The notes below the pieces were generated by a model, which saw nothing but the letters and a program-made list of their open reading frames with translations, was not told the origin of the DNA and did not search any database. A program made the position numbers and the translations under genes. Of a stretch of 39,893 nucleotides of DNA, positions 6,771 through 38,357 are shown piece by piece. The DNA is from Thermodesulfobacteriota bacterium (GTDB taxonomy: Bacteria > Desulfobacterota > UBA8473): assembly GCA_034190725.1 (NCBI GenBank), contig JAXHSZ010000434.1:1-39893 (forward strand), written 5' to 3'. Within the stretch, counting starts at the first letter, position 1. Each line of letters starts with the position of its first letter.

Positions 6771-6799
6771 TTTTAATGTGAGTCTAGGTCTGATATAAT
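6771..6799 (+). promoter_or_regulatory. Candidate sigma70-type promoter for nifU-nifS (extended -10)
   Basis: TGATATAAT at 6791-6799 (TGn + TATAAT). Weak -35 TTTTAA at 6771-6776 with a 17-nt spacer. Lies 109 nt upstream of the ATG at 6908. Pattern match by eye only. Confidence 0.3.
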
Positions 6800-6907
6800 G
6801 AAGGTTTACAAAGGGATAAACGTGATTATATTATAGTAAAAATAGTAAAAAGGTAATAAAGAAGATAACATGTATCTCACAGTGTCAAACGTAAGGAGGA
6901 AAAGAAA

Positions 6908-7420: not shown

Positions 7421-7442
7421 ATTCGGGTAAGGAGGCCCAGAA

Positions 7443-16587: not shown

Positions 16588-17171
16588 TACGTTCACCTCC
16601 AAATTGATAATAGGTTCTTACTCCTTACATCTTCAATTTTTTTACCCCTTGCCAAATCTCTCCCTTTTCTTTGCATCCCCCCTTTCAGTGTTTAGAATTA
16701 CTTCAAAAACTCAGAACTGCTTCTTCAGGGGTGTTGGCCAAAGCCGTTTTTGCTAATGCATCACCCCCTTTTACTATGAATTCGCTAATATCGAGGATAT
16801 CCTGTTCTTGTTCTTTTCTTGAGCCTAAAATACCATTCTCAATAACACCTTTAATATAGCCTTGTCAAGAATTTTTTTTTAAAAATAAGCGTCAGGCCTA
16901 TGTTTATACCCCATAGACAATCAACATTCTACATCCATTATCACCAATTATTGTGGATTGTACGATCCTCGATACAACATATGGAGGTTAAAAAATTTTT
17001 AGACTGCTGTTTTTTATGAGTTATTTTATAGGGTTATGACTCTCTGCATAATAAATCTAAACTACCATTGTTTCTGATCCATACTTTATGATAAGGACAG
17101 ATATTGTAGGCGCTTTTCTTATCACTGATGCTCTTTGTGGTAAAAATGCACCATCACGAATACTCTCATCT

Positions 17172-19322: not shown

Positions 19323-19419
19323 AACACGCCCCCCCGTGTTTCAAAATATTAAAATTTGACCGATGTTGAAGCTACTCTTTAAAATAATTAGACTGTTACA
19401 CAGTCAAAACTCGTTTACT

Positions 19420-22129: not shown

Positions 22130-23380
22130 TCAGTCCAATATAATGGCATTGGCCAGAAGTGTCCATAGATGAACGGGTTCGAATTGATAATCGTCTTTGT
22201 ATTCCCTTGCCAGATTACCGATACCGTCAAAACAATTCACACATGGGGTACAGACAAAATTCGCTTTTGACCTTTTGATCTGATCCACCTTCACTTTTCC
22301 ATAATAGCTTCTGGCTCTTGCAAATCCGCTTATGAGAGCACCACCGCCTCCACTGCAGCAGAAGTTATTCTCCCGGTTCGGTGTCGACTCCACGAAGTTG
22401 TTCACCACATGACTCAAAACAAATCTGGCATCGTCAGCTATGGAAGGAAAGTCATCTATCTTGGCTTTACGCACAGCATTGCACGGATCATGCAATGTGA
22501 CCACTTTGTCATCATTTCTCGACGGATCCAATTTGAAACGTCCTTCTCTGATCCATTCCGCGTACAAAGTAACAACACTCTTCACATCAAACTTATGCTC
22601 AATATTGAATTTTTTGAAACCCACCTGGGTTGCCCAAAGACCGTGGCCTCACTCCGTATACGCCATGGTTTTGCAACCCAACTCGTGAACCCGGTCAACC
22701 TGTTTTCTCAGAGTAGTTTCCCAAGTATCAAAATCACCGGTAAACATGGCGTAGTTGGTGCCTTCCCACCATTGGGAAGATATGGTCCAATCCACACCTG
22801 CTGCATGAAAAATCTTGTAGATAGGCTGGAGATCACCTGGATAATACTGAGGCAGTTTTGAGTTTATTGTACAGAAATATTCTGCCCCTTCTTTATCAAT
22901 GGGTACTTCAAATCCAGGAATCTCATCGTCCTCAAGTTCTTCTGCCATCCACTCAAATGTCTCAATCCCATCCTCTATGGTCAGTCTCATGTTATTGCCC
23001 ATTTCAAGATGATTGTCCGCTGTCTTTTGAATCTCTCCGGGACATTCCTCCCTCGGACGAGCAGCTCGGGCTTGTGTAATTATCTGACCCAAATTGATGC
23101 CCATAGGACATGACCATGTACAGCGTTGGCAATTGGTACACTGCCACGGCCAATTTGAATCGATCACATCTTGCTCCAAACCTAATTCAATCATACGAAT
23201 CAACTTCCTCGGATCCATGCCTTCCCAGTCTGATACCGGACAACCACCAGCACAGGTTCCGCATGTAAGACATAAATCCAATTTGCTGAGAGGTGAGACC
23301 AACTCCTTGAATTGAAGGTCTCCTCTGTCTTTTTTTAGTCTGATTTTCTCCACTATCCACCTCCTGAGGCCTTTGGCCAC
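22130..23380 (-). CDS. HdrD/GlpC-like Fe-S oxidoreductase (2x[4Fe-4S] ferredoxin domain + CCG domains), predicted selenoprotein with in-frame UGA at 22651..22649
   Basis: ORFs 22649..23380 and 22130..22624 are in the same frame, separated only by one TGA (…MAYTE-TGA-GHGLWATQVGFKKF…). The N-terminal part carries CLTCGTCAGGCP and CTNCQRCTWSCP. The C-terminal part carries DPC...CCSGGGG...CTPCVNC (CCG domain) but has no ATG or RBS of its own. A SECIS-like hairpin follows the TGA. Confidence 0.7.
22613..22638 (-). promoter_or_regulatory. SECIS-like hairpin downstream of the in-frame UGA
   Basis: mRNA reads UGA-GGCCACGGUC-UUUGG-GC-AACCC-AGGU-GGGUU-UCAAA. The lower stem is UUUGG/UCAAA (with one G.U pair), there is a 2-nt bulge, the upper stem is AACCC/GGGUU, and the apical loop AGGU contains GGU. 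The stem begins 10 nt after the UGA, similar to the spacing known for E. coli fdhF. Confidence 0.5.
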
Positions 23381-23774: not shown

Positions 23775-24668
23775 CTATAACTCAAGCCAGGAATCGGAAT
23801 ACAGTGAATGTCCCAAAAGAACCTTAGCTGTCTTCATATAGTCCAGCTCCTCTTTTGTCATGGAGCCGGGATCGGGTTCATTGCCGTCGCAAATATCTTC
23901 GATCAGCTTCTTGATCTCAGGCCTTTCACCTTTACAAAAAGCAGTCATATCATCATCAAAGGCGTCGACTATGGCCGAGTACATGCCGTACTTTTCTATG
24001 ATAACTATATACGTTTGATTGAGTATAGGTCTCAAATGTTCGGGGGCCCCGTTTGAGACATTTGATAACCCGCAGGTGGATTTCATCCCAGGTGCCAGGG
24101 CGTCACACAAATCAGGAAACATCATCATAAACGTGGTCATGCTCTTCACCTGGTCCTGCTGAACGTTGACCGGTGTCATGATGGGATCCAGGAAGATATC
24201 CTCCGGCGCCATTCCCGCTTCAAGCATTGCGGAAACCAGAGTCACGGTCAATTCCGATCTCTCGTTTTCATCCCTGGGCATACCAGAGGGTCCCCAGAGT
24301 AAAGCGATTGCCTGGGCGTTGTACTGAGCTGCTAATGGGATCATGGCCTCCATTCTTTCAGGCCTTGCCATGATCGAGTTGATCATGGCTCTCCCCTTGT
24401 GCACCTTTAACCCTGCCTCTATGGCCTCTATGTTTGAGGTGTCCAGGGCCAGGGGGATATCCGGCACCACCTCCTGAACTGTCTTGACGATCCATTCCAT
24501 CAATTCGGGGCCACCCTTTCTTGCCGGACCAAGATTGATATCGATCCAGTCCACACCCTTTTCCGCTTCTTCCTCGGCCAGCTTTCTGATGGGACCCGGG
24601 TCCTTCTCTTTCATTGCTGCGCCGATGGTTTTCACCATGACGTTTAAATTTTCTCCTATTCGTAACAT
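23775..24668 (-). CDS. acsE: Methyltetrahydrofolate:corrinoid/iron-sulfur protein Co-methyltransferase
   Basis: Pterin-binding (DHPS-like) barrel: IGENLNV, DWIDINLGP, LALDTSN, INSI, CGLSNVSNG. Position next to acsC/acsB. Confidence 0.9.
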   Translation of the reverse strand: MLRIGENLNVMVKTIGAAMKEKDPGPIRKLAEEEAEKGVDWIDINLGPARKGGPELMEWIVKTVQEVVPDIPLALDTSNIEAIEAGLKVHKGRAMINSIMARPERMEAMIPLAAQYNAQAIALLWGPSGMPRDENERSELTVTLVSAMLEAGMAPEDIFLDPIMTPVNVQQDQVKSMTTFMMMFPDLCDALAPGMKSTCGLSNVSNGAPEHLRPILNQTYIVIIEKYGMYSAIVDAFDDDMTAFCKGERPEIKKLIEDICDGNEPDPGSMTKEELDYMKTAKVLLGHSLYSDSWLEL

Positions 24669-24916: not shown

Positions 24917-26266
24917 CTATGCTGCTACTTGCCTTAAAAAAGCTGGAATATGAGCGGCTTCCCTTGGTCCGATGGCCACTTCCCAATCCGTGCCTAACTC
25001 TTCTTCCAGGTCGCCGCTTATTGCTGCCGCATATCCGGGAATGATGATCTTTCTTGTCTTCGCTTTATCCATGATCCCGCACTTCTTGACAAATATTCCC
25101 AATGCGTCGCCGACAAACTTTCCTGCCGCCCATGCCGTCAAAACAGAAAGTCCTTCCGTGTCGATGATCAAAAGCCAGGTAGGCACTTTGCTGCCTTCGA
25201 TCTCTCCGGATACGATGAAGTAGGTCAAAGCAAAATTCGAGGTGATACAGATGGGGGAATTTTCATCGGGATTGTTGATTTCGTATATTCCCTCGGTGAC
25301 CACCATGGGACGTTGGGGATCGGTGTAAATATTCAATCGTTCCAAAAGGAGCGGGAAGAGGCTTGATCCTTCAAAATCCGACATGACCAATATGCCTGCA
25401 TATTTCGCAATCAGCATCGAAGAGATCATGGTTTCCTGGTCCAGTGTCTCTGCCATTTCAAAGGGGAGGCAGATTGTGGGGAATCCCAAAGACTTGTTCT
25501 TGGCCAGAAGCGCGGCCCTCCTGATCGTTATCTGATCCTCATACGCTTGCTTTGCAGATCGTGCTCCTGAATCGAGTACAAGATCTTTTAGCCCCATTGC
25601 GGTGGCCTTGTCGGACAACTCGGTCAGATTATCCATGTCCGTCCCTTTGATCGCTAAAGAGCATCCGCTTTCTTCGGCCAATGCCGCCATTTTATCGAAG
25701 TTATCGTTTGTTGCAGCATATATAAGGGGATGTGTGCCATCCTTTGCCTTAAGACCTGACGCCATGACACCCGGATCTTCACTCATAAGAATAGAACTGA
25801 AGTTACTTGTGTCCGCCACTTGCTTTACTATGGCTTCGAATTTTCCGGCATCGCCATTGGTATCTTTGATAGCCACAAGTTCCGGTCTCAGATTGAGACC
25901 CACTCTCTCGTATTGATATGTATCCCACTTTCTCAGTTTCATATCAACGGTATCTTCATCCATATCCGTGGTCAGGAGAGCTGCTAGTCCGGTAGGACTG
26001 AAAAATGTCTTCTCATGACGATAAAGAACCGTCTCTCCCCCTACTTTTACGGGTCGATCTCCATATCCGACAGTGAGTTGCCGAATGGGAGGGGCCGAAG
26101 CTTCCGCCAGTTTTTCTTTTGCCTCCTCTGAAACATACGGACAGGCAGAAAGCTCTGCCTTTCCTGCCGCCAGATTCATGGCAAAAGCAAGGCAGGTAGC
26201 AACCCCACACTCCTTACAATTGGTTTTGGGGAGCATCTTAAATATTTCTATACCTGTAAGTGCCAT
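24917..26266 (-). CDS. acsC: Corrinoid iron-sulfur protein large subunit (gamma)
   Basis: N-terminal [4Fe-4S] motif LPKTNCKECGVATCLAFA...SACP, then a TIM-barrel and a C-terminal corrinoid-binding domain. RBS GAGGAGGAAAG. Confidence 0.93.
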   Translation of the reverse strand: MALTGIEIFKMLPKTNCKECGVATCLAFAMNLAAGKAELSACPYVSEEAKEKLAEASAPPIRQLTVGYGDRPVKVGGETVLYRHEKTFFSPTGLAALLTTDMDEDTVDMKLRKWDTYQYERVGLNLRPELVAIKDTNGDAGKFEAIVKQVADTSNFSSILMSEDPGVMASGLKAKDGTHPLIYAATNDNFDKMAALAEESGCSLAIKGTDMDNLTELSDKATAMGLKDLVLDSGARSAKQAYEDQITIRRAALLAKNKSLGFPTICLPFEMAETLDQETMISSMLIAKYAGILVMSDFEGSSLFPLLLERLNIYTDPQRPMVVTEGIYEINNPDENSPICITSNFALTYFIVSGEIEGSKVPTWLLIIDTEGLSVLTAWAAGKFVGDALGIFVKKCGIMDKAKTRKIIIPGYAAAISGDLEEELGTDWEVAIGPREAAHIPAFLRQVAA

Positions 26267-26340: not shown

Positions 26341-28557
26341 TTAACCAATGATGGGATCCATCTTCAGGGCCGGATGATCTTTCTCTTTTAAGAAGGGCAG
26401 AATCTCATCCTCGGTGATTCCGACAGTTTCATCGGCGATCCTGTCTATGAGATCGGAGCAACCCAACTCTTCACCTCTCTTTAACAGACCTTCTCTGAGC
26501 TCTTCCTTCAACCCTTTCGGCATCCATACCAATCGGAGGAGCCCACCATCTCCTGAGATGAATTTTCTCTGGCAGATATTGTATTTACTGTGTCCGACAA
26601 ATCCCGGGGAGGATGCTCCGCCCCCCATCACTCCGGCCAGTGTTGTGAACTTCATTCCTGAAGGGGTCTCTCCCGTATAATCACGGCCCACTGTCATCAC
26701 TCCGTTACACCCGGAGAGAACAGCAGCAATGCACTCACAGCATCCGCAGGTGGTCATGGGATCGTGAACGAGACTGTAGAAATTGTAATGAGTCACATTT
26801 TGTCGTGAAGCTTTGTACACAAAGTCGTTCACTCCCTTCCATTGACCCAGTTTCGGATCAACACATTCTCCCTTTTCCACAGGCTGGTTGGGACCAGTGG
26901 GATTGATTTCATATGAGGCCTTACAATCCATCCAATTATAAGCACCACAAAGGCCGGTCCTCTCGGGGCTCACCATACAGACATGGTTAGGAGCAAATGA
27001 TTGACACAAAGTACAGGAGTAGTAGGTTTCCACGCTCTCATCCGTCATGGCCTCCACCCTGGCGTCTCTCTTCTTGTAATTATCCCTTGCAGTGGCTGTC
27101 AACTTGTCCACATCATCCTTCTTGGTATAGAGGGTGACTTGAACCTTATCGAGGATATTGCCGAAATCCTGATGCAACTTGGCATGGAGAATCGTCCCTA
27201 TATCCTTGAGGGCGAAGCCTTTATTCACAGCTTGATCACCAACCCGTATCCATGCAATATCGCGCTGTCCGATATGCATGATACCCTGGGCATAATTGAT
27301 AAGATGATGAATCTGTCTTTCGAGAATGGGCTCGAAGTCTTCCTGCATTTGACGCCCTGCCACCTGAACAAAGATGCCCAGTGGAAGCTTGTCACCTTTT
27401 TTAGTATCTTTAATCTCCGGCCCTATGACTTCAATTTGACCGTCTTCAATCTCCTTCATATCCGCCATCTTGCAAAGCTCAACCGCCTGGGTCTTTCCAC
27501 CGCCCATCTCCAGATAGAGATCATCTTTCCTCACACGCTCTCCCTCAAAGGCAGGGCCGTAGGCAAGGGGTATATCGATTTCAGAAACCGTGACCTTAAG
27601 GCCGCGAATTTCTATTGACTTGCTTGTCATCTCCTCGTGAGTAACGTTTGCCACCACATGCTCATATGTACAGATACCCGTGGGGAGTACTTCCGGGATG
27701 TCTGTATCTGCGATCGTGGGAAAACCCCAGTTTACACACCCGGCAGCATTGACTGCCCATTCCGCATTGACTTCCCCAAGGGCGTTTACAAAGGCAAAGA
27801 TACGCTCTTTGTTGTACATGAGTATCTTTCTTGCATCTCCCGGTTTCATTCCGCCGAATGACATGGCAGCCCGATTGGCGAAACCGAGTGCAAAGACGGC
27901 CGCCGATATATCGGGGCCAAAGGGAACCAGTCGTGTATTCCAGCCGATCTGCACTCCTGCCTCCACAAGCTGTTCTGCGAAGGTGGTTCCCGCCTGATTT
28001 GCGGCCATGAAGACGTAGATGCTCTTCTTTTGATACTCTTCAGCGATCAGTTTGGCTGTCTCAGGATCAGGGGCGGCGCCCACAATGGCTGCAAATCCGG
28101 GAGCGGTTCCGTCCACGAATTCCACACCTCTCTTTCTCATAATGGCATCGTCTGCGGCTCCCAACCAAATCTTGCCATTATCCACATCCGGATCCTCGAT
28201 TTCAGGTTGGTAGAAATCCGGGTCTTCCACGTAACGGATCGCCTCCACGATCTCTTCGGCCAGTATGGCCGCCATACCGGCATCGAGCATAGGGCCGAGA
28301 TAAGGAAGATGGTTCACCCTTTTGACGTGAGGGGGAAGAAGACTTCGGCACACCTTCATGACCTCGGCGGCATCGCCCAGGGTCTTTACGGGAATGCCCA
28401 GTATTGAATAGATAATCGGGAGATAATATGCGGTATTGGGAAATTCCAACTTCTGTTCAGGCCCGTACTTCTCCATGGCCTTTTTATATTTTCCTTCTGC
28501 CTTCTGGACGATATTGTATCCGCCCTGAATCGCAGCAAATGCAACTAGTTTTGACAT
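26341..28557 (-). CDS. acsB: Acetyl-CoA synthase catalytic subunit (A-cluster protein)
   Basis: 738 aa. N-terminus MSKLVAFAAIQGGYNIV..EFPNTAYYLPIIY. A-cluster Cys region CTLCQSFAPNHVC..GLCGA and TTCGCCECI. Confidence 0.95.
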   Translation of the reverse strand: MSKLVAFAAIQGGYNIVQKAEGKYKKAMEKYGPEQKLEFPNTAYYLPIIYSILGIPVKTLGDAAEVMKVCRSLLPPHVKRVNHLPYLGPMLDAGMAAILAEEIVEAIRYVEDPDFYQPEIEDPDVDNGKIWLGAADDAIMRKRGVEFVDGTAPGFAAIVGAAPDPETAKLIAEEYQKKSIYVFMAANQAGTTFAEQLVEAGVQIGWNTRLVPFGPDISAAVFALGFANRAAMSFGGMKPGDARKILMYNKERIFAFVNALGEVNAEWAVNAAGCVNWGFPTIADTDIPEVLPTGICTYEHVVANVTHEEMTSKSIEIRGLKVTVSEIDIPLAYGPAFEGERVRKDDLYLEMGGGKTQAVELCKMADMKEIEDGQIEVIGPEIKDTKKGDKLPLGIFVQVAGRQMQEDFEPILERQIHHLINYAQGIMHIGQRDIAWIRVGDQAVNKGFALKDIGTILHAKLHQDFGNILDKVQVTLYTKKDDVDKLTATARDNYKKRDARVEAMTDESVETYYSCTLCQSFAPNHVCMVSPERTGLCGAYNWMDCKASYEINPTGPNQPVEKGECVDPKLGQWKGVNDFVYKASRQNVTHYNFYSLVHDPMTTCGCCECIAAVLSGCNGVMTVGRDYTGETPSGMKFTTLAGVMGGGASSPGFVGHSKYNICQRKFISGDGGLLRLVWMPKGLKEELREGLLKRGEELGCSDLIDRIADETVGITEDEILPFLKEKDHPALKMDPIIG

Positions 28558-28602: not shown

Positions 28603-30639
28603 CTAGACAGCTTCCAGTTTTTGTCTGTCGGCCATATCCATGAGCACTCGTTCTCTGGCTTTGTCAATGCCCAGCTCTTTTCTCTTCTTATCGATGTGGG
28701 CAATCATCTTATGTGCATGTTTGATGGGATCGGCTTCGAAATCCCACTTGCCGCCGTAGATCCCTTCCAATTTATTGTACAGATGATCCTGAAATACAGG
28801 GGCACCGGATACAGGCATGGTCACACCAAACACAGTATACACTCCGGAAGCCACGAAATAATGCCCGATACTGATTGCCTTCTCACTCATCCATTCCGGG
28901 GCTGAACCCGCAGCCGGAAGGTCACTGATATCCTTACCCAATCCACCTGCCTTTACAACCTCTGTGGCCGCCATCAGTATCCTGCTGTTGTCCACGCAAG
29001 ATCCCATATGAAGTACTGGCGGGATTCCTACTGTCTCGCACACCTCTGCAAGCCCTGGTCCACAATACACTGCGGCTGCCTCCGGTGTCAATAATCCTGC
29101 TTTGCCGCAGGCCATGGCATTACACCCTGTGGTGAGAACGATCACATCGTTCTTCAAAAGCTCCTTGACAACAGTGAGATGTCCATTGTTATGCATTGTG
29201 CGGGCATTGTTACACCCCACGACTCCTGCGACACCCCTGATCCTGCCGTTTATGATATTGTCGTTCAACGGAGTATAAGACCCCCTGAATGAGCCACCCA
29301 GATGATAATTGATTGCTTCATAAGAAAATCCCACAACCTGGACCTCTTTTTCTTTGGGAATCATCGGTTCCGCACTCCGGTTTTTAAAATTGTCTATAGC
29401 CATCCTGAGTATTTTTTTCGCATCTTCCATAGCGTGATGCTCATCGAACTCTATGTGAACCGTATCCCCTGATCTTATGCGAGTGCGGGGATTCGTCGTT
29501 ATCAACTTGGTGTGAAAACACTTGGCCACATTTGCCAGATTTTCCATGATGCACTGAACATCAACTACCATTGCATCAACAACACCAGTCACTATAGCCA
29601 ACTCTTGTTGTAAGAAATCTCCTGCTATAGGGACTCCGTGCCTGACCAGTATTTCATTTCCTGTACAGCATATACCTGACAGATTAATCCCTTTTGCGCC
29701 TTTGCTCTTTGCATATTCCAGCATCTCGGGATCTTGGGATGCGGCTACAATCATCTCTGACAAGAGTGGTTCGTGTCCGTGAATAACGACGTTCACCTGA
29801 TCTTCATCCATTACTCCCAGGTTAATCTGCGCATGAATGGGATACGGCGTACCAAAGAGAACATCCTGGAGGTCTGTTGCCAGCATAGACCCACCCCAGC
29901 CATCGGCCAATGCGGCGCGACTGCACTGTTTTACTATATTTTCGTAATCTTGGTCCACTCCCATGTGTGTACGGTGCATTATCTCTACCACTTCTCGGTC
30001 TATCCCCCGAGGCACCACGCCCTGCTTTTTCCACAGTTCATAACGGGGCTCTGGGGCTCTTTTGGCATAGTAGATCTCACCTTCTTGTCTGCCCCATTCC
30101 GCCAGGGCCTTCTCCGCCACTTCCAGTGCTATCTCATAAATGTCACGATCCTTCTCTTCATCATCTACAGTAACCGTTGTGGCAACTCCAAAGTCCGGTG
30201 CGATCTCTAGTAATTTCTGTGGATCCTTTATCTTGTAATCGTCTGTCTCTTTGCGTGCTACTGCCAAAAAGACCTCTGCAACACCCCGTCCATGATCGGA
30301 ATGAGCGGAAGCCCCAGCTGCCACCATACGCGCAAAATTACGGGCAGCGATAGTGTCCGGAGTTGCTCCGCAGAGGCCCTTTCTGTCGTCTTCTCCTTCA
30401 ATACCACTCTTTGGCAAGGGAAGTCGACATGGTCCCATAGCGCAGTTCTTACAACATGTGCCCTGTATCCCGATTGCGCATGGAGCCATTGTGACGGCCC
30501 TATCAAAAACCGTCTCTATTCCCTCTGCCTGGGCTTTCTCAAGCATCTTTACAGTGGCGGAATCGACACTGCATTCAGAGGGGACTGCCGTTTTCTTCGG
30601 TTTCTTCACAGTCTTTTCCTTTGCTTCTTCTGTTGCCAT
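28603..30639 (-). CDS. acsA: Anaerobic Ni-Fe-S carbon monoxide dehydrogenase catalytic subunit
   Basis: 678 aa. D/B-cluster motifs CAIGIQGTCCKNCAMGPCRL. GLCGATPDT. C-cluster region HGHEP, GICCTGNE, GCNN, MGSCVDNSR. Confidence 0.95.
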   Translation of the reverse strand: MATEEAKEKTVKKPKKTAVPSECSVDSATVKMLEKAQAEGIETVFDRAVTMAPCAIGIQGTCCKNCAMGPCRLPLPKSGIEGEDDRKGLCGATPDTIAARNFARMVAAGASAHSDHGRGVAEVFLAVARKETDDYKIKDPQKLLEIAPDFGVATTVTVDDEEKDRDIYEIALEVAEKALAEWGRQEGEIYYAKRAPEPRYELWKKQGVVPRGIDREVVEIMHRTHMGVDQDYENIVKQCSRAALADGWGGSMLATDLQDVLFGTPYPIHAQINLGVMDEDQVNVVIHGHEPLLSEMIVAASQDPEMLEYAKSKGAKGINLSGICCTGNEILVRHGVPIAGDFLQQELAIVTGVVDAMVVDVQCIMENLANVAKCFHTKLITTNPRTRIRSGDTVHIEFDEHHAMEDAKKILRMAIDNFKNRSAEPMIPKEKEVQVVGFSYEAINYHLGGSFRGSYTPLNDNIINGRIRGVAGVVGCNNARTMHNNGHLTVVKELLKNDVIVLTTGCNAMACGKAGLLTPEAAAVYCGPGLAEVCETVGIPPVLHMGSCVDNSRILMAATEVVKAGGLGKDISDLPAAGSAPEWMSEKAISIGHYFVASGVYTVFGVTMPVSGAPVFQDHLYNKLEGIYGGKWDFEADPIKHAHKMIAHIDKKRKELGIDKARERVLMDMADRQKLEAV

Positions 30640-30698: not shown

Positions 30699-32279
30699 TT
30701 ATGACCTCTTGTGAATTCTATCCAAAAAGGCGATAATCTTTTCCGTGTTTGATAGTTGAACGTCGGCAGGAGTAGCCGGTATAGCTTCACCAGTCTTTGC
30801 TTCCTTTTGACGTTTTGCTTCAAGTGCTTCACGCTCTTTTTGTCTTTTCAACCTCATTTCATCAAGGTCTGCTTCGGCTTTTGCTTTGGCTTTCTCTTTT
30901 GCCTCAGCCTCGGCTTTCTTTTTTGCTTCCTCCTCGGCTTTGGCCTTTGCTTCCGCATCTGCTTTCGCCTTTGCCTCTGTTTCCGCCTTTGCCTTGGCAT
31001 CCTCTTCTGCTTTCTTCTTTGCTTCCTCCTCGGCTTTAGCTTTTGCTTCTGCATCGGCTTTTACCTTGGCCTCTGAATCCACTTTTACCTTTGCTTCTGC
31101 ATCCGCCTTGGCTTTAGCATCTTCAACCGCTTGAGGCTTTTCTGCAACCTTCTTCTCTTCCTTTACCTCAGGTTTTGGCGCTGCCTTGGGAGGGGCTTTC
31201 GGCGCTGCTTTCTTCTTTTCCTCTTTGGGCTCTTCCTTTACCTCTATTTTCTCGATCTTCGGAAAATCGCCTTCCGGCTTAGCGTTAATCCCCTGCAATT
31301 TAGCCGCGAGTTGCTCGGGGCTGATGGCAAGATCGCCGGTAATCATCAAACAAATAAACTCCTTCACCAACTTGACACTCTCTGGATGCCTTAAGACAAG
31401 GATATCCGAACCGGCCAGAAGATAGGTAACGGCTCCGACACATTCCAGCATGATCCCTCTGTTCTCAGGGTCGCCCAGAGTGGGAGCTTCCTCCAAACTC
31501 TGCTTGGCCTCTTTACACTTCCATATCTCCTCACCGAGACTGTTGATTATTGGACTCTGAAGTTTTTCATCTTCCTGAGTCAATGCGGCCATCCTGATTC
31601 TTTCCATTACTGAATAGGAATATTCCAGGCCATATCCCAATCCTCCCGTGGTGGGATCGATCAGGATCTTATCAGAACTCACTCCAAGATTATCGAGAAG
31701 TACATTGAGTTGTTTGGCAAGATTGATGTCTATGGGGGTTGACGCGATCACCGATTGTTTGAATCCCAAAGCACTGGCACCGATTTGTTTGTGAGTAGCT
31801 TCTTCAACCGGGCCTAAAACAAGGTTCTTTCCCTGGTTATCTTCCGCTATCTTCTTCAGGACTTCAACGTCTTTATCTTTATCCCCGCATCCCCACACTG
31901 CAACCGGGACGTCCACAGCATCGCGCACTTTTTTCACCGTGGCGGCTGCCTCCTCCGGACCCTTGTTCGGACCGTTGGGATCAGTGCTTTTCAATTGTAC
32001 CACAATCATGTCAGCACCGTATTCTTCTACACACTTCTTTGCCCAGGCCCCGGAATCGTTCAATACATCCTTAAATGGCGTAATAACAGCCTCAGGCCAT
32101 TCTTCAGGTGCCATGTCCCATATTTCCATGGCAACCTTCGGTGTATTAGGCATTTCACCCTCAAACAGGTAAAAAGGATAGGATGACTCTCCACCTACAG
32201 TGAGAGTCTTTCCCCCTTCACCCAGGGTCACCTCTTTTATCATTCCTGTGTAATGTGTTTTTGTAATTTCAAAGGCCAT
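30699..32279 (-). CDS. acsD: Corrinoid iron-sulfur protein small subunit (delta) with ~185-aa Lys/Glu/Ala-rich C-terminal extension
   Basis: Residues 1-~330 look like the AcsD TIM-barrel (EVTLGEGGKTLTVGGE, MIVVQLKSTDP, IDPTTGGLGYGLEYSYSVMERIR). Residues ~341-526 are low-complexity (PKEEKKKAAPKAPPKAAPKPE, then repeated AEAKAKAEEEAKKKAE units), ending in NTEKIIAFLDRIHKRS. Confidence 0.88.
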   Translation of the reverse strand: MAFEITKTHYTGMIKEVTLGEGGKTLTVGGESSYPFYLFEGEMPNTPKVAMEIWDMAPEEWPEAVITPFKDVLNDSGAWAKKCVEEYGADMIVVQLKSTDPNGPNKGPEEAAATVKKVRDAVDVPVAVWGCGDKDKDVEVLKKIAEDNQGKNLVLGPVEEATHKQIGASALGFKQSVIASTPIDINLAKQLNVLLDNLGVSSDKILIDPTTGGLGYGLEYSYSVMERIRMAALTQEDEKLQSPIINSLGEEIWKCKEAKQSLEEAPTLGDPENRGIMLECVGAVTYLLAGSDILVLRHPESVKLVKEFICLMITGDLAISPEQLAAKLQGINAKPEGDFPKIEKIEVKEEPKEEKKKAAPKAPPKAAPKPEVKEEKKVAEKPQAVEDAKAKADAEAKVKVDSEAKVKADAEAKAKAEEEAKKKAEEDAKAKAETEAKAKADAEAKAKAEEEAKKKAEAEAKEKAKAKAEADLDEMRLKRQKEREALEAKRQKEAKTGEAIPATPADVQLSNTEKIIAFLDRIHKRS

Positions 32280-32324: not shown

Positions 32325-33212
32325 TTAGATCAGCCCGGCATGAACTTTGGCGGATTTCACCGTATTCATCATCAGCATGGTTATCGTCATCGGCCCCACT
32401 CCCCCGGGAACAGGCGTTATGGCTGAGGCTTTCTCCTTTACGGCTTCAAAGTCCACATCTCCACAAAGTTTTGCCTTCCCTGATTCTGTCTTTCCGATAC
32501 GGTTCACGCCGACATCGATGACTACGGCTCCTTCCTTCACCATGTCCGCTGTCACTGCCTTTGGTTTTCCCGCGGCAACGATAAGAATATCAGCCCTTTT
32601 CGTATAAGAGGCCATGTCCTTCGTTCTCGTATGACATACGGTCACGGTTGCGTTTGCCCCTTCCTGTTTTTGTAAAAGGATATTTGCCACGGGTTTCCCG
32701 ACGATGTTGCTTCGTCCCACAACAACAACATCAGCCCCATTCGTTTCCGTATTGCTCCTTATTAACAATTGCTGGACCCCGGCCGGGGTGCAAGGAAGAT
32801 AATCCGCTTCACCAATCATCAATTTCCCCAGGTTAACGGGGTGAAAGCCATCCACATCCTTCTTGGGATCTATGGCATAGAGTACTTTTGTATCATCTAT
32901 ATGCTTTGGCAGGGGCAATTGCACAAGTATGCCATGGATCTGAGGGTCCTTGTTGTATGTGTCGATCAAACCCAATAACTTTTCTTCCGAAATATCATCC
33001 GGTTGGTTGTCCTGTATGGAATGAAATCCCAACTCCTTTGCCGTCTTCTGTTTCCCTGTCACATAGCTTATGGATGCAGGGTTCTCCCCAACGAGTATGG
33101 TGACCAATCCGGGCACCACATTATGTTTCTCCTTTAACTCTTCAACTTCCTTCTTCAATTCTTCTCTGATCTGTTTGGCTACTTCGGTTCCGCTGATAAT
33201 CTTCGCTGACAT
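32325..33212 (-). CDS. folD: Bifunctional methylenetetrahydrofolate dehydrogenase / methenyltetrahydrofolate cyclohydrolase
   Basis: PGLVTILVGENPASISYV, HGILVQLPLPKHID, DVDGFHP, CTPAG, VVVGRSNIVGKPV, PVPGGVGPMTI. Confidence 0.95.
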   Translation of the reverse strand: MSAKIISGTEVAKQIREELKKEVEELKEKHNVVPGLVTILVGENPASISYVTGKQKTAKELGFHSIQDNQPDDISEEKLLGLIDTYNKDPQIHGILVQLPLPKHIDDTKVLYAIDPKKDVDGFHPVNLGKLMIGEADYLPCTPAGVQQLLIRSNTETNGADVVVVGRSNIVGKPVANILLQKQEGANATVTVCHTRTKDMASYTKRADILIVAAGKPKAVTADMVKEGAVVIDVGVNRIGKTESGKAKLCGDVDFEAVKEKASAITPVPGGVGPMTITMLMMNTVKSAKVHAGLI

Positions 33213-33441: not shown

Positions 33442-33583
33442 AGTGACTATCCATAAATGGCTATTTCCTCATCCCTGAGTCAAACTCAGATTTTGGTCCT
33501 TAAAATACTCGGAGTATTCATGCGGTCAAAATCTTCGATTTCTTTGATCTTGCAGAAAATATTTCATTTCTGGATGGACACTA
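33442..33583 (+). mobile_element. MITE-like intergenic repeat, copy D (between cooC and folD)
   Basis: AGTGACTATCCATAAATGGCTATTTCC ... AAAATATTTCATTTCTGGATGGACACTA. Its last 3 nt (CTA, 33581-33583) are the complement of the cooC TAG stop codon. Confidence 0.8.
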
Positions 33584-34336
33584 GTTGATTATGTCATCCA
33601 ATATCTGAGCAACTGCCTGTACCGCACTCGACTCATCAGGTAAATCTGTCAGGGGTCTCAACGAGAGATCATACTCAGAGATTAACGTATCCATAGGGAT
33701 AGTGAAAAAGGAGTTGAATCCGTTTTTTTTCATCTCAGTTTTTAGTACAGGATTTAATTCCCCTTGGATTCTATTAAGAATAAAGTATTCTTTTTTTATT
33801 GATAGTTCAAGTTCTTTGGCAAGATCCCTTATTCTGGCTGCAGTCATAATCCCCTTTGGTGTAGGGTCTGAGACAATCAACAAAGCATCAATCGACTGAA
33901 GTATCCGTCTGCTCAAGTGTTCCATCCCGGCTTCATTATCGAGAACCACAAAATGGTAGTTTTTGATAAAAATGTCTAAAAACCTCCTGAGCATATTGTT
34001 CACAGGGCAATAGCACCCAGGCCCCTCACCTCTCCCCATCGCCAGGACATCTATACCTTCTCCTTCCACCAAAGATTCATTGAGCTTTAATTCAAGAAAA
34101 GCTTCTTTATCCATTCCCGGCGGTAATTTTGACAAATCTGATGAAAAATCTTCTCTTACCGCCCCAAGTGTCTTTCCCTGATGAAACCCAATGGTTTCGG
34201 CAAGATTCACATTGGAATCTGCATCAACTGCCAATATGGGGCCTTTCTCTCTTCTCTTGAGATTCCGTATGATAAGTCCGGATATGGTTGTTTTGCCTAT
34301 GCCTCCTTTTCCTGCAACTGCAATCACAAAACTCAA
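33581..34336 (-). CDS. cooC: CODH nickel-insertion accessory ATPase (CooC/AcsF type)
   Basis: Deviant Walker A VAGKGGIGKTT. CxC metal motif GPGCYCPVN. MinD/Mrp-like fold signatures (VVLDNEAGMEHL). TTG start 11 nt after AGGAGG. Confidence 0.9.
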   Translation of the reverse strand: MSFVIAVAGKGGIGKTTISGLIIRNLKRREKGPILAVDADSNVNLAETIGFHQGKTLGAVREDFSSDLSKLPPGMDKEAFLELKLNESLVEGEGIDVLAMGRGEGPGCYCPVNNMLRRFLDIFIKNYHFVVLDNEAGMEHLSRRILQSIDALLIVSDPTPKGIMTAARIRDLAKELELSIKKEYFILNRIQGELNPVLKTEMKKNGFNSFFTIPMDTLISEYDLSLRPLTDLPDESSAVQAVAQILDDIIN

Positions 34337-35145
34337 GACAGACTCTTCCTCCTGTTATAAATACTCTGGATAGATAGAAAATACAAACGGATAGTGTAAA
34401 TAATACGTATCCTTCCTGATCGATTCGTCACTCAATCGATAGTCAGGTTGATAATCGATGGTTGGTTTGACAGCACAGGTGAGTGAACCTTCATTCATAA
34501 CGGCTGAAAAGTACCATACAATTGCTTTATTGTCAAGAGCTTTTGCAAATTTTTCAGAAAGCCACCGGTGTGGAAAAAATTCCCCGACTTCTCTTTTTTG
34601 TACTTGACAATCCAAGGTCAATATCCTACATAGATTAAGCGGTTCAAGGTTCACGATTGAATCATACCACCCCCCGAATTGCAAGGAATTGTTAATAATC
34701 CTGTAGCTCTTGTCATCGCATCCGTTGGGTGATTATCGAAGCCGTGGTCATAATCAGAGCTCCAAGAACTATTGCTATTATGTCTTTACAACCATGAACA
34801 TTGAATGGGGAAAACTGAACTGCTCAATTTAAGTGAAACTTGCATGCTCCGATTGAGCAAAACCGCAGGAATAGTGGTATCTATTTCAGGGATTTTGTTA
34901 TTAACTACAGAGATACTTTCGAATAAACCCGTAAAGAGCCTGTTTGAAAGACCTCTTTCCTCACTTGGATTGAGTTTTTTGCTCGTTCTCAGTTCGCTAC
35001 GCAAAATGTTAAGTTATTTTTGCGCAGATCCTTAAGATTATTGATGACACGTTTGCAGGAAGGGAGGTGGTGAGTTCAAGGAAGGTGTTACTGCGGATTA
35101 TTGAATGTGGTTATACATAACAAATTGAAAAAGAGGAGGGGAAAA

Positions 35146-35562
35146 ATGGCCATTGGAAAAGAAGTTCGCGAGATGTTAAAAGGAATGCTTGGTATGACTG
35201 ATGAGGAGATAGATAAAATCGGGCCTGACAGAGCAAAATTATTGGCGGGTGCACCAGAGCTATTTAACTACAAGATAACCGCTGAAGTCATTGCGTCTGT
35301 ACGATGCGCTGCACAAATAAAAGTGGGTGATAAATTCGTCTTTAACGCCAATGTCCTCAATAAAGATGAATCTACGGCTCCGGCCTGCATCGGCGCATTA
35401 GCTCCCTTAATGGAGCCTATTCATATGATTTTTGACAGGCTCAGCGAGGGGCTTGATCCTAATGGCTTATGGACCCGGACTGTTTCATGTTTTGATCCTG
35501 GTTTAGAGCGTGGTGGCGTTGGGAATGTGTTATTTAAACTCACCGCCGAAAAATTGGGTTAG
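35146..35562 (+). CDS. TIGR04076-like small Cys-containing protein with N-terminal extension
   Basis: ATG at 35146 follows AGAGGAGGGG. The pattern C-x5-KVGDKF...P-x-C-x2-A...L-x-P...SCFDPG...VLFKL matches my recollection of the TIGR04076 family layout. Needs HMM confirmation. Confidence 0.6.
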   Translation: MAIGKEVREMLKGMLGMTDEEIDKIGPDRAKLLAGAPELFNYKITAEVIASVRCAAQIKVGDKFVFNANVLNKDESTAPACIGALAPLMEPIHMIFDRLSEGLDPNGLWTRTVSCFDPGLERGGVGNVLFKLTAEKLG

Positions 35563-35698: not shown

Positions 35699-36994
35699 TT
35701 AAGACATCTTATCCGCCCCCGGTAGTGGTGTGTCACCTATTATTCGTTCCCTCTCAAGTTCCTCTATCTCTTTTCCAGACATCCCTAAAAGCTTACCGAG
35801 TACATATTCATTATGCTCCCCGAGAGCAGGTGCCAGCCTCTTTATGGTGATCGGCGTCTTTGTCATCTTCACAATGGGACCAGGATGGCGCATGGTTCCC
35901 ACCTGGGGGTGACTGCCTGTCTGAAAGAAATCACGCTTCTCTAAGTGGGGATTCTCCACAATGGCCTTGCCGTTCAACACCGCCCCTGCCGGAACACCTG
36001 CTTTCTGAAGCAGGGTCATGACCTCATGATCTTCATGTTGAATGGTCCATTCCTCTATGAGTCTATCCAACTCGTCCTGATTTTCGAGCCTGCCGAGAAG
36101 AGTAGAGAACTTTTCATCCGCTGTCCACTTCGGACTGCCGATGGCTTTGGCAAAAGCCCTCCATTCTTTGTCCGATGAAACAGCAATGGCAACCCATCTG
36201 TCATCAGGCGGCTCATCTCCACCACGGCAGCGATAACAGCCATGAGGAGCCATGGACGGGTGACGATTGCCCATACGCTCCCATGTCCTCCGGTTCATGG
36301 TGAAGTCCATCATTGCTTCACCGATAAGCATGGTTGTGGCCTCACTCTGAGAGACATCTATCCATTGACCCTTTCCTGTTTTTTTGCGGTAGTGCAAAGC
36401 GGCTATGATCATGCCTGCGGCGCTTGCAGCGGCTGTGGGATCGCCGTAGTCCATACCCGATTTCATGGGTCCTGATTCGGCACTGTAGCCAAGGATCATT
36501 GCAATACCGCTCATCTGTTCCTGGGACATACCGAATGCTCGATAGTTCTTCTCCGGGCCGATGGCTCCATAAGCAGGCATGGAGAGAACGATAATGTCCG
36601 GCTTTACCTCTTTCAGAGAGTCATAGTCGAGTTTGAGCTTCTCTATCACATCGGTAGGGAAATTCACAGTCACTACATCGCTTATTTGCACAAGGCGATG
36701 GTAGATCTGAAGTCCGCGCGGTCTGCTCAGGTCGATGGTGATTCCACACTTGTTTTGATTCCAATATTGAAAGGGCCCCCGGCGATTATATGGCCTCTCA
36801 CCAGGGTCCATGTCTGGATAGATACCCAGACCGCTTATTCCGGCGATGGGTCCTCTGGAGGCATCGTAATTCTGTATTGATTCTACCTTGATCACCTCAG
36901 CTCCAAAATCGGCAAGCAGTTTGCCTACCCAGGGACCAGCCCAGATTACGCCGTGGTCCAACACTCGTATACCTTCCAGTGGCAATTGAGACAC
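35699..36994 (-). CDS. Family III CoA-transferase (CaiB/BaiF/Frc-like), 431 aa
   Basis: GTG at 36994 lies 7 nt after AAGGAGG. N-terminus LPLEGIRVLDHGVIWAGPWVGKLLADFGAEVIKVES is the family III signature region. The longer ORF to 37054 starts inside MITE copy E. Confidence 0.88.
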   Translation of the reverse strand: MSQLPLEGIRVLDHGVIWAGPWVGKLLADFGAEVIKVESIQNYDASRGPIAGISGLGIYPDMDPGERPYNRRGPFQYWNQNKCGITIDLSRPRGLQIYHRLVQISDVVTVNFPTDVIEKLKLDYDSLKEVKPDIIVLSMPAYGAIGPEKNYRAFGMSQEQMSGIAMILGYSAESGPMKSGMDYGDPTAAASAAGMIIAALHYRKKTGKGQWIDVSQSEATTMLIGEAMMDFTMNRRTWERMGNRHPSMAPHGCYRCRGGDEPPDDRWVAIAVSSDKEWRAFAKAIGSPKWTADEKFSTLLGRLENQDELDRLIEEWTIQHEDHEVMTLLQKAGVPAGAVLNGKAIVENPHLEKRDFFQTGSHPQVGTMRHPGPIVKMTKTPITIKRLAPALGEHNEYVLGKLLGMSGKEIEELERERIIGDTPLPGADKMS

Positions 36995-37014
36995 TCGAAT
37001 ACCTCCTTTTAAAT

Positions 37015-37166
37015 AGTGCCCATCCATATATGCATATATGGCTATTTTCCGCAATCTCTGCGTCAGACTCAGATTTTAATCCTCAAAATACCCAATGTAT
37101 TCCTGCGGTTAAAATCTTCGTCTTCCTTGACCTTGCAAAAAATATCTCATTTCTGGATGGACACTA
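37015..37166 (+). mobile_element. MITE-like intergenic repeat, copy E (between the two CoA-transferase genes)
   Basis: AGTGCCCATCCATATATG...GGCTATTTTCCGCAATCTCTGCGTCAGACTCAGATTTTAATCC...CAATGTATTCCTGCGGTTAAAATCTTC...TCATTTCTGGATGGACACTA. TA is present on both flanks. The terminal CTA (37164-37166) is the complement of the upstream gene's TAG stop. Confidence 0.85.
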
Positions 37167-38357
37167 AATAATACTCATCTCCTTCAACTTCACCAAGTCC
37201 TCTTTGGTGTATCCCAGTCTGTTACAGTAGATCTCTTCATTGTGTTCTCCCAAGAGGGGTGGTCGTATTGTCTGCCATGGTGTCTCGCTCATGATGGCCG
37301 GTGCACCCGGATAAGTGAGAGTGCCTGTCTCCGGATGATCAATATCCACCCAGAATCCTCTGGCCCTGTATTGAGGGGCATTTACCAGGTCTTCAGGGGA
37401 ACGAACGAGTGATATGGGGATCTTTCTCTCCTGCCCTTGATGATAAATTTCCTCTCTTGTATGATCCATGAAGAATGGATACAGGGCAGCATCGACTTCA
37501 TCTCGGTTGAAGACACGCTTGACAATACTATCGATGCTCTCAGACCGTATCTCAGGTGTATCGATCCATTCCACAAGACGATCCCACAACTTCCCAACCA
37601 CAGCTATCCCAATGTATCCGTCTTTGCAAAAATACATCCCCCATGGGTGAGCAGCTCCCTTATTTCCCTTCCTGACCTCGATTCTCCCTTGATAGAGGTA
37701 TTCAAGGAGAGAGTACTCTAAGATCGAGTTCATCGTTTCCATTATGGAGCTTTCCACGTACTGGCCAATACCGGTTCCATTTGCTCCGTAAAATGCAGCC
37801 ATGGTGCCAACAAAGGAGTTCAACCCTGCCTGGTATTGTGCCTGGGAGCCAACCGGTTTCAAGGGGACCCTGTCCAAATCACCTGTAATATACATCAATC
37901 CCCCTAAAGCCTGTGCCACAATCTCGGTCATTTTGTAATCCCGGTACGGACCACTGCTGCCAAAGTTGGAGATCGATGTCATGACCAGCTTTGGATTCAA
38001 CTCCTCCAGGACTTCATATGTAAGCCCGAATCCTGCCATTACTCCGGGGCTGAAATTCTCCACCAGGATATCCGCCTCTTGGACCAATTGAAGGAATATG
38101 TTTTTCCCGGTCGAACTCTTCAGGTTAAGAGTGATACTCTTTTTCCCGGTATTCAAATGATGGAATAGGCCACTCTTCTCCGGGTGGGGCTCATCATTGA
38201 AGAAGGGTCCTATACTCCTTGCCGGGTCCCCTTGGCCCGGCCTCTCTATCTTGACTACCTCGGCCCCCAACCCGGCCAAGAGTTTCGTACAATAGGGGCC
38301 TGCGATATGCCAGGAGAGGTCCAATACCTTTACATCTGATAATGCCTGTTCTGCCAT
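37164..38357 (-). CDS. Family III CoA-transferase (CaiB/BaiF/Frc-like), 397 aa
   Basis: LSDVKVLDLSWHIAGPYCTKLLAGLGAEVVKIERPGQGDPAR. Full-length family III architecture. Confidence 0.9.
   Translation of the reverse strand: MAEQALSDVKVLDLSWHIAGPYCTKLLAGLGAEVVKIERPGQGDPARSIGPFFNDEPHPEKSGLFHHLNTGKKSITLNLKSSTGKNIFLQLVQEADILVENFSPGVMAGFGLTYEVLEELNPKLVMTSISNFGSSGPYRDYKMTEIVAQALGGLMYITGDLDRVPLKPVGSQAQYQAGLNSFVGTMAAFYGANGTGIGQYVESSIMETMNSILEYSLLEYLYQGRIEVRKGNKGAAHPWGMYFCKDGYIGIAVVGKLWDRLVEWIDTPEIRSESIDSIVKRVFNRDEVDAALYPFFMDHTREEIYHQGQERKIPISLVRSPEDLVNAPQYRARGFWVDIDHPETGTLTYPGAPAIMSETPWQTIRPPLLGEHNEEIYCNRLGYTKEDLVKLKEMSII

Follow-up and report, generated by a model that had tools for sequence, protein, structure and literature searches.

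The 39,893-nt contig JAXHSZ010000434.1 of a Thermodesulfobacteriota bacterium (GTDB lineage UBA8473, GenBank assembly GCA_034190725.1), the whole of which was analysed here and is referred to as the window, encodes a small subunit of the corrinoid iron-sulfur protein (CoFeSP), AcsD, that continues for 214 residues beyond the point where its solved homologues end. The question raised by this locus is what such a C-terminal tail is for. The analyses reported here describe the tail as an ordered series of conserved segments that recurs throughout the Desulfobacterales and is held to a narrow total length. We read it, with a confidence only slightly better than even, as a tether-and-dock device that selection has kept on the CoFeSP small subunit.

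Identity of the Protein and Extent of the Tail

The acsD open reading frame (ORF) lies on the minus strand at 30699..32279, with its stop codon at 30699..30701 in the ORF list, and its product has 526 aa. Judged by family, structure homology and gene neighbourhood this protein is the CoFeSP small subunit AcsD: the Pfam model CdhD (PF03599) matched aa 16-304 (E = 7.6e-49; 166.9 bits against a cut-off of 24.8), the NCBIfam model NF003377 scored 611.6 bits against a cut-off of 527, and AcsC, acetyl-CoA synthase (ACS), carbon monoxide dehydrogenase (CODH) and the methyltransferase are all encoded as neighbours. CdhD was the only domain found by Pfam, and as no second enzyme domain was matched the protein is not a fusion protein. 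The small subunit proper is a TIM barrel comprising aa 1-312 (31344..32279, minus strand), as delimited by Pfam, by alignment to structures in the PDB and by an AlphaFold2 (AF2) prediction in which the predicted local distance difference test score (pLDDT) of the barrel was mostly 75-97.

The solved small subunits 4djd_D (323 aa), 2h9a_B (310 aa), 4c1n_B (309 aa) and 9fzy_E (314 aa) aligned to aa 1-312 only (E-values from 4.9e-87 to 3.1e-74), and since these homologues stop at aa 312 the extension was taken to be aa 313-526, that is 214 aa encoded at 30699..31343. An initial annotation, made from the sequence alone, had given the length of characterised small subunits correctly as about 320 aa (309-323 aa in the solved proteins) and had recognised a real C-terminal extension, but it set the extent of the latter too short, at about 185 aa beginning at 31259. 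The model NF003377 has 432 positions and matched aa 1-436, and part of the tail is therefore already inside an annotation model, without a stated function. The characterised proteins of Moorella thermoacetica (4DJD) and Carboxydothermus hydrogenoformans (2H9A/2YCL/4C1N), as well as 9FZY, are homologous to the barrel over their full length (E ~1e-86) and share the gene context (acsA, acsB, acsC, acsE); the difference is that they end at 309-323 aa, whereas the window protein has an additional 214 aa.

Distribution and Length of the Tail

The top 120 database relatives were nearly all 509-555 aa long and nearly all tailed, and their C-terminal parts followed the same order of A/E/K repeat, Arg/Lys helix, TPAxxQ and the motif ..DK[ILM][IL]..L[DN][RW][IV]H[KR]R. 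A scan of one genome per GTDB species returned 546 stretches with relatives, of which the best 80 loci were used; the ORFs of 71 of these were complete and unmasked, and 69 of the 71 encoded proteins of 499-540 aa (median 520 aa). Among these tailed forms are those of three closed genomes, Desulfonema magnum with 516 aa, Desulfoluna limicola with 519 aa and chromosome OZ245369.1 with 520 aa, and that of the cultured Desulfatitalea alkaliphila (524 aa). On the strength of these homologues the tail is a lineage-wide norm in the Desulfobacterales and not a peculiarity of the window. The initial annotation had called the tail unusual and had suggested that lengths be compared across related genomes, adding that its claim would fall if such tails proved to be common and already described in the lineage. 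They are common, and the tail is unusual only when set against the crystallised acetogen and Carboxydothermus proteins. No description of the tail was found in a full-text literature search, which covers few subscription journals, so that a prior description was not established, and the Desulfococcus multivorans proteogenomic paper does not mention AcsD/CdhD.

Measured from the barrel to the C-terminus, 177 distinct tails had a length of 210 +/- 5.8 aa (coefficient of variation 2.7%) despite many indels. Each tail was divided into linker and helix segments using the last proline and the conserved R..E[RKH] anchor; the alternative division by the longest Pro/Gly-free stretch is sensitive to a single Gly or Pro. 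The lengths of the two segments had standard deviations of 7 and 8 and were inversely related (r = -0.71), and the variance of the total length was 32, compared with 125 for independent segments and a minimum of 84 in 5000 permutations. So narrow a total length is as would be expected if the reach of the tail matters.

Anatomy of the Tail

All segments described here are on the minus strand. The barrel is followed by a post-barrel segment, ITGDLAISPEQLAAKLQGINAKP (aa 313-335; 31275..31343), which is not present in the solved structures. Its residues G315 and P335 were invariant among the 33 homologues of an alignment referred to here as A1, and AF2, which was run on a single chain with a 33-sequence alignment, predicted a short helix at 321-331 (pLDDT ~61). 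The adjoining 47 residues (aa 336-382; 31134..31274) are a Pro/Lys/Ala/Glu-rich, probably flexible linker that consists mainly of K, E, P and A and includes the peptide KKKAAPKAPPKAAPKPEVKEEKK. This linker was indel-rich and weakly conserved in A1, and AF2 assigned it no secondary structure (pLDDT <50). It leads into a charged segment of 114 aa that is free of Pro and Gly (aa 383-496; 30792..31133) and that is predicted, from its charge pairs and the AF2 model, to be a single alpha-helix spacer. Nine in-register octads of the form x-[DE]-x-[DE]-x-[KR]-x-[KR], in which the x positions are mostly Ala, were delimited within it by Tandem Repeats Finder (TRF) and autocorrelation (aa 392-463; 30891..31106), and the helix predicted by AF2 covers aa 410-495 (30795..31052; pLDDT 66-81). 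The Arg/Lys-rich helix end ADLDEMRLKRQKEREALEAKRQKEAKT (aa 470-496; 30792..30872), with the stretch LDEMRLKRQKEREALEAKRQKEAK, closes the Pro/Gly-free run; among the 33 homologues its consensus is E.LR.KRA.ERE.L.AKR, and R479 and E482 are invariant.

The helix end is followed by a hinge, GEAIPATPADVQLS (aa 497-510; 30750..30791), which carries a T-P/A-A-x-x-Q motif with A505 and Q508 conserved in at least 90% of sequences and in which AF2 predicted no helix at 497-508 (pLDDT <50). The protein ends in the peptide NTEKIIAFLDRIHKRS (aa 511-526; 30702..30749), a predicted amphipathic basic helix for which the AF2 helix spans the 12 residues 511-522 (pLDDT ~71-79), with a hydrophobic moment of 0.53-0.61 and a mean hydrophobicity of -0.16 to -0.33. 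The family pattern of this end motif is [DE]-K-[ILM]-[ILM]-x-x-L-[DN]-[RW]-[IV]-H-[KR]-R, and at least 90% conservation was found for K514 and R525 in A1 and for H523 and R525 in a further alignment (A3). End-motif classes of the family include ..LDRIHRR, ..VNRVNKR and ..KFKKIRR. The fixed positions of helix end, hinge and end motif stand out from sequence of otherwise low complexity and speak, like the wide distribution of the tail, for selection on it. All three peptides quoted in the initial annotation were thus located, KKKAAPKAPPKAAPKPEVKEEKK in the linker, ADAEAKAKAEEEAKKKAE as two copies 32 aa apart and NTEKIIAFLDRIHKRS at the C-terminus. Pfam searches with the linker, with the last 59 aa and with the small domain of the split form described below gave nothing significant, and when 39 aligned end peptides were searched as a profile against the PDB, the outcome was a chance match only (E = 0.84). 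Full-length PDB matches to eL29, TCERG1, zuotin and circumsporozoite protein were rejected as compositional only.

The central segment bears the signature of a charged single alpha-helix of the ER/K type, as far as residue pattern and AF2 model indicate, and not that of a coiled coil. Residues 383-496 contain 46 opposite-charge pairs at i/i+4 and 4 same-charge pairs, whereas shuffled versions gave 18 +/- 3.3 (maximum 29; n = 2000), and over the 177 tails the ratio of opposite to same was 5460:687. Hydrophobic residues account for 8 of the 114 positions and for 6.4% over the 177 tails, a content so low that there is no heptad seam and a coiled coil is not indicated. The likeness to single alpha-helices noted in the initial annotation is supported by this charge-pair signature and by the continuous AF2 helix over aa 410-495; in solution the segment would probably be a monomeric, stiff helix. 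Helices of the ER/K type are known from myosin VI and X and from caldesmon, and A(EAAAK)n sequences have been engineered as rigid linkers. The tail resembles them in its long Pro/Gly-free run, its opposite i/i+4 charges, the lack of a hydrophobic seam and a helix predicted for part of the run. It differs in being far richer in Ala (~30%) and in its strict 8-residue period, and is known here from sequence and prediction.

Repeat Structure and Assembly Quality

The tail repeat is better seen as a 24-nt/8-aa unit, since TRF returned a period of 24 nt with ~7.5 copies and the autocorrelation of the protein had its maxima at shifts of 8, 16, 24 and 32. Superimposed on this unit is a 96-nt higher-order duplication in which octad units 3-4 and 7-8 are identical at the protein level: ADAEAKAKAEEEAKKKAE is found at aa 408-425 and 440-457 (31005..31058 and 30909..30962), a spacing of 32 aa or 96 nt. 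The duplication of about 96 bp proposed in the initial annotation was confirmed in the form of two 54-nt copies that are 96 nt apart and identical at 47 of 54 nt. The seven differences are all at third codon positions and all synonymous. As only about 20% of substitutions falling at random in the repeat codons would be synonymous, seven out of seven has a probability of ~1e-5, which argues that the peptide sequence of the repeat is under purifying selection.

No exact DNA repeat within the tail is longer than 20 nt, and Ala, Lys and Glu are each encoded by a mixture of all their synonymous codons, so that collapse or expansion of the repeat by an assembler is implausible; the mis-assembly that the initial annotation wished to see excluded is also contradicted by the three closed genomes, in which AcsD has the same length, and there is no need to resequence the region. 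The ORFs that overlap the repeat on the plus strand (30756..31076, 30797..31039 and 30886..31134) and in another minus-strand frame (30854..31054) have low-complexity translations and are by-products of the restricted codon set, in agreement with the earlier view that the antisense ORFs are artefacts of the repeat.

Split Forms, Fusions and Other AcsD Tails

C-terminal extensions of AcsD were found to be widespread and diverse when the barrel alone was searched against 1.84 billion cluster representatives. Short forms of 313-332 aa do exist, for example an Omnitrophota protein. Two proteins of 410 and 437 aa (P0127 and P0273) have a short, non-repetitive tail and yet the same end motif (..MVDRLTRHLARMHRRF), which indicates that the end motif outlives the spacer. 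Forms of 562-906 aa combine a Pro/Ala/Lys linker with repeated helical modules of ~60 aa and terminate in an amphipathic basic helix of another kind. Long tails of repeated modules were seen in P0274, P0344, P0133, P0141 and P0345, the first of these (WP_082464433.1, Dethiosulfatarculus sandiegensis) reaching 1012 aa. One type of long tail has four units of ~85 aa ending in ..EYGEY....RWSLR, and another has two to four helical units of ~60 aa with the conserved end ..L[RK][EQ]M[LI]..[FY][RK]..KR.V.GIK.L.

In two species the tail is encoded separately, at 6001..7742 of the related locus L028 and at 6001..7669 of L055. AcsD ends there at 432 and 431 aa, respectively, in a small helical domain with the pattern ..LG[LI]DLE.LL......REDI.HTAE.H.L..E..LKKLGG, and the next ORF, of 147 and 122 aa, respectively, starts at or beside the AcsD stop, adjacent or overlapping. 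This small ORF consists of a start MA[IK]DLFA[DE]EPK.., an (AEAKAK)n repeat, the Arg/Lys helix, TPAxxQ and the end motif, and its separate existence identifies helix and end motif as a self-contained module. Together the small domain and the DLFA motif may make up a joint that is not covalent, each contributing one half. When the small domain was searched against a database, a single 45-aa fragment was returned, so the split form is rare.

In sister lineages AcsD is covalently joined to other enzymes of the pathway. Fusions of AcsD to CODH (968-1146 aa) formed at least 55 clusters in the Desulfomonilaceae, with the gene order fusion-AcsB-AcsC-AcsE; in a fusion of 1122 aa the Pfam domains CdhD (15-255) and Prismane (509-1083) are joined by two linkers with a short helix between them. 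The cultured Desulfomonile tiedjei (P0317) has a fusion of 1099 aa in its 6.5-Mb genome. Fusions of ~1100 aa are the norm in the Desulfomonilaceae (one example, P0129, is at 8001..11369 of L081) and bear no annotation other than 'anaerobic carbon-monoxide dehydrogenase catalytic subunit'; in the middle of their linker lies a conserved helix (..LTKEDIQGLKEMVGVFRAVKN..). Fusions of methylenetetrahydrofolate reductase (MTHFR) to AcsD, ~850-915 aa long, were found in cable bacteria, other Desulfobulbales and Thermodesulfatator (P0351-P0395), and an mthfr/acsD fusion has been named for Desulfurivibrio alkaliphilus (PMC5016858). In 38 of the 45 listed MTHFR-AcsD fusions an A/E/K-rich stretch of 42-111 aa, which lacks Pro and Gly and shows the i/i+4 pattern of the tail, connects the two enzymes, which means that in this phylum such a helix serves to link AcsD to a further enzyme of the pathway. 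Some versions (P0350, P0358, P0383, P0391 and P0136) additionally carry TPR repeats. The two kinds of fusion together indicate that the physical tying of AcsD is a recurrent and conserved solution. In the window, the far end of the spacer is a 16-residue peptide and not an enzyme, and a stop codon and 59 nt separate it from acsA; the likeness to the fusions lies in a barrel joined to a long low-complexity spacer, which in the MTHFR case is an A/E/K helix.

A hidden Markov model of the end motif (last 34 aa) was searched against every stop-to-stop ORF of 40 aa or more in the window and the 80 related loci. It matched AcsD itself, the separate tail ORFs of L028 and L055, masked or alternative-start copies of AcsD and one 60-aa ORF of L002, and nothing else. 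With the matches confined to AcsD-type ORFs there is no sign in these loci of a targeting peptide shared with neighbouring enzymes. The 60-aa stop-to-stop ORF (about nt 7630-7810 of L002, frame +0) lies right after a tailed AcsD, contains a second end motif (..TPAKVQVSGVDRLLAQVDRTHRR..) and may be a duplication or frameshift remnant.

Resemblance to Other Tethered and Repetitive Proteins

The nearest parallel is found on the same subunit in archaea. In the M. acetivorans complex of acetyl-CoA decarbonylase/synthase (ACDS), a disordered N-terminal region of CdhD with a short helix oligomerises and scaffolds CODH, ACS and CoFeSP (PMC13370988, preprint). The same study states that bacterial AcsD has no region of this kind and that oligomers of bacterial CoFeSP are not known; it compared N-termini and does not mention C-terminal tails. 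The likeness consists of a long, mostly non-globular terminal extension with a short conserved helix, which is proposed to hold CoFeSP, ACS and CODH together yet mobile, and of a pathway run in the acetyl-CoA-cleaving direction, as in aceticlastic methanogens; Desulfobacteraceae use the pathway for acetyl-CoA oxidation (PMC5109826). The differences are that the archaeal extension is at the opposite terminus, has no sequence similarity to the tail and contains no long charged helix. The barrel of the window AcsD begins at residue 1, and it has no N-terminal extension of the CdhD type.

A more distant resemblance is to the E2 chains of 2-oxoacid dehydrogenases, in which Ala/Pro-rich linkers and small binding domains let a carrier reach several active sites. 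Here too a flexible Ala/Pro/Lys-rich linker is attached to a carrier, and in the split AcsD of L028 and L055 such a linker is followed by a small terminal domain of helices; the sequences are unrelated, and the carrier is a whole corrinoid protein and not a lipoyl domain.

The octads share the charge pattern (--++) and the Ala alternation of EAK16, a peptide derived from zuotin and represented by AEAEAKAKAEAEAKAK, and a weak match to zuotin 7x3k_A was obtained (E = 0.0028). The --++ pattern with a period of eight is present in all nine octads of aa 392-463; the exact unit AEAEAKAK is not in the window AcsD but occurs in 130 of 187 relatives. EAK16 is a synthetic peptide of 16 residues studied as a beta-sheet former, while the pattern in the window extends over at least 72 residues of a protein and is predicted to be helical. 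TolA domain II, with which the initial annotation had compared the tail, shares the Ala/Lys/Glu-rich composition and is presumed to be a long helical spacer, and the NCBIfam model tolA_full matched with E = 2.5e-12. This likeness proved to be compositional only, and membership was rejected: the scores remained under the cut-offs for TIGR02794 (tolA_full; 46.7 against 59.45 bits) and NF007065 (38.9 against 213), the protein begins with the AcsD barrel and ends in a 16-residue peptide without a Pfam or PDB match, and a membrane anchor and domain III are absent.

Proposed Function and Alternatives

In the tether-and-dock mechanism that we favour, the flexible linker of ~47 residues and the semi-rigid charged helix would give a defined reach from the barrel. 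The charged helix, in whose octads each charge would find an opposite partner four residues on, would measure ~13-17 nm for 86-114 residues of 0.15 nm each. Binding would fall to the amphipathic basic end helix of 12 residues, which would attach to a component of the acetyl-CoA pathway, be it CODH/ACS, enzymes of the methyl branch or further copies of itself. The travel range of the corrinoid protein would then be set by the spacer, and the methyl carrier would thereby be kept near donor and acceptor in acetyl-CoA cleavage or synthesis. Docking by the end helix, the choice of partner and a kinetic benefit are the presumptive elements of this mechanism; a spacer or tether role as such is favoured by the comparative evidence from the CODH fusions, the MTHFR fusions and the natural split form. 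The initial annotation had thought of a tether to a partner or to a surface or of a rigid spacer, and of these ideas the surface has found no support.

Several points weigh against the tether-and-dock mechanism. The partner of the end helix is putative, and the models are of a single chain. AF2 confidence on the helix is moderate (pLDDT 66-81) and residues 383-409 are not predicted to be helical; the repeat has 30% Ala, unlike the classical E/R/K helix, and isolated peptides of the same charge pattern (EAK16) form beta-sheets (PMC2387071). The inverse relation of the segment lengths is partly built in by their shared boundary at one proline, and the sequences compared are phylogenetically related. 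Adjacency of acsD and acsA alone can yield fusions, which show compatibility and not necessity. The conserved linker helix also persists in the Desulfomonilaceae fusion, and the docking helix might bind something other than CODH.

A wider proposal, which we put forward tentatively and consider somewhat doubtful, is that complete-oxidising sulfate reducers build a supercomplex of their own that corresponds to the archaeal ACDS. Its organiser would be the AcsD tail, with the end helix docking on CODH/ACS, on a methylene-THF (tetrahydrofolate) reductase/methyltransferase module or on itself, and with CoFeSP swinging between donor and acceptor on a length-calibrated arm of 13-17 nm; the fusions and the split form would be alternative evolutionary solutions to one channelling problem, and all would be convergent with the N-terminal scaffold of CdhD. 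The direction of the pathway may be linked to tethering. As a special case of such a scaffold the partner would be AcsD itself, its end helices bundling into a star-shaped assembly of several CoFeSP, which would be a convergent C-terminal equivalent of the N-terminal coiled coil of archaeal CdhD. The precedent is the 14-residue helix in the disordered archaeal CdhD terminus, which forms a hexa-/octameric bundle and scaffolds ACDS (PMC13370988), and the end helix of the tail is likewise amphipathic, with three to four hydrophobic positions spaced i, i+1, i+4, i+7; a conserved helix is moreover kept in the Desulfomonilaceae although AcsD is already fused to CODH there. We nevertheless think such a hub unlikely, as ~12 residues provide only ~1.5 heptads of core, the strongly basic end (HKR/HRR) would repel within a parallel bundle and, according to the authors of PMC13370988, oligomerisation of bacterial CoFeSP is unreported.

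The properties of the end helix also bear on membrane or envelope anchoring, in which it would insert at the cytoplasmic membrane surface and the charged helix would space CoFeSP in a TolA-like arrangement. The C-terminal helices of MinD and FtsA insert into the cytoplasmic membrane surface, and the hydrophobic moment, the basic residues and the frequent Trp (..NWIHKR) of the end helix would suit this role. Its mean hydrophobicity is low, however, and acidic residues lie on the helix; the weak TolA matches that might be cited in favour are compositional, under curated cut-offs and without a transmembrane segment or TolA domain III, the covalent analogues tie AcsD to soluble enzymes and not to membrane proteins, and to our knowledge all known CoFeSP partners are soluble, so that we hold anchoring to be improbable. 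It is slightly more improbable still that the repeat is a self-assembling or condensate-forming low-complexity domain in which (AEAEAKAK)n-type sequences of different molecules pair via complementary charges and concentrate CoFeSP. The octads do have the charge pattern of EAK16-II, 47 of 187 family members contain the 16-mer AEAEAKAKAEAEAKAK exactly and zuotin-derived EAK16 forms very stable beta-sheet assemblies (PMC2387071), but AF2 predicts helix and not strands, the pattern is no less optimal for i/i+4 salt bridges within a helix, and self-assembly leaves unexplained the conserved end motif, the conserved total length and the use of the repeat as a connector in MTHFR-AcsD fusions. A tail binding polyanions or nucleic acids in the manner of histone H1 or AlgP might be suspected from the Lys/Ala/Pro-rich linker (KKKAAPKAPPKAAPKP) and from compositional matches that include ribosomal eL29. 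We give this very little credence, since the net charge is close to zero (0 over aa 373-480, +2 in the linker and +4 across the 185-aa stretch as a whole) and acidic and basic residues alternate in strict register and neutralise the helix surface. The least credible account is a functionless neutral low-complexity expansion or an assembly artefact, with AcsD effectively ending near residue 335. Such repeats expand readily by slippage and a 96-nt block is duplicated here, yet frame and length are kept in hundreds of homologues and independent assemblies, closed genomes included, exact DNA repeats are short, the repeat copies differ by synonymous changes only and conservation extends to the motifs at the far end. 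Within the limits of sequence data, this account is refuted.

Genomic Neighbourhood

The Wood-Ljungdahl gene cluster around acsD has the canonical order and is entirely on the minus strand. It contains genes for a CooC-like ATPase (33581..34336), FolD (32325..33212), AcsD, AcsA/CODH (Prismane; 28603..30639), AcsB/ACS (CdhC/ACS; 26341..28557), AcsC (FeS + CdhD; 24917..26266) and AcsE (Pterin_bind; 23775..24668) and, beyond AcsE, an HdrC/HdrB-like pair (22130..23380). Downstream of acsD, acsA starts after an intergenic gap of 59 nt. The N-terminus of AcsA (30580..30639) is a Lys-rich, probably disordered stretch of ~20 residues, MATEEAKEKTVKKPKKTAVPSE, which lies upstream of the point where the linker of the Desulfomonilaceae fusion meets CODH; similar Lys-rich CODH starts were seen in L028 and L055.

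Directly downstream of the cluster (17970..21630, minus strand) are genes for a PAS-GAF histidine kinase (736 aa) and a sigma-54-dependent response regulator (450 aa), which could be candidate regulators of the Wood-Ljungdahl cluster. Upstream of the CooC/FolD/Acs genes there is a tandem pair of family III CoA-transferase genes (35699..38357, minus strand; 451 and 397 aa). No Pfam match at E <= 1e-5 was obtained for the ORFs at 14887..16602 (minus strand, 571 aa), 9722..10333 (plus strand, 203 aa) and 35101..35562 (plus strand, 153 aa). A neighbouring ORF of 1177 aa (10527..14060) has a spermidine-synthase-like domain, TPR repeats and a weak MFS-like N-terminal region.

Implications

The tail of AcsD is apparently an undescribed feature of a whole lineage, although charged single-helix spacers, tethered multienzyme systems and AcsD fusions are each known kinds of structure. 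For genome annotation it follows that some 200 extra residues on AcsD are not an error, nor are the overlapping antisense ORFs signs of one, and for protein engineering the very regular natural (x-acid-x-acid-x-base-x-base)n helix is a possible spacer. What keeps a mobile corrinoid protein close to CODH/ACS and to the enzymes of the methyl branch is a question of current interest, which archaea solve through a disordered N-terminal extension of the same subunit (2026 preprint, PMC13370988). In a whole bacterial order that runs the pathway in the cleavage direction, AcsD carries a length-conserved C-terminal arm with a conserved end peptide, and in sister lineages the place of this peptide is taken by covalently bound CODH, or MTHFR is attached via the same kind of helix. 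The tail therefore bears on whether the bacterial Wood-Ljungdahl enzymes form tethered supercomplexes.

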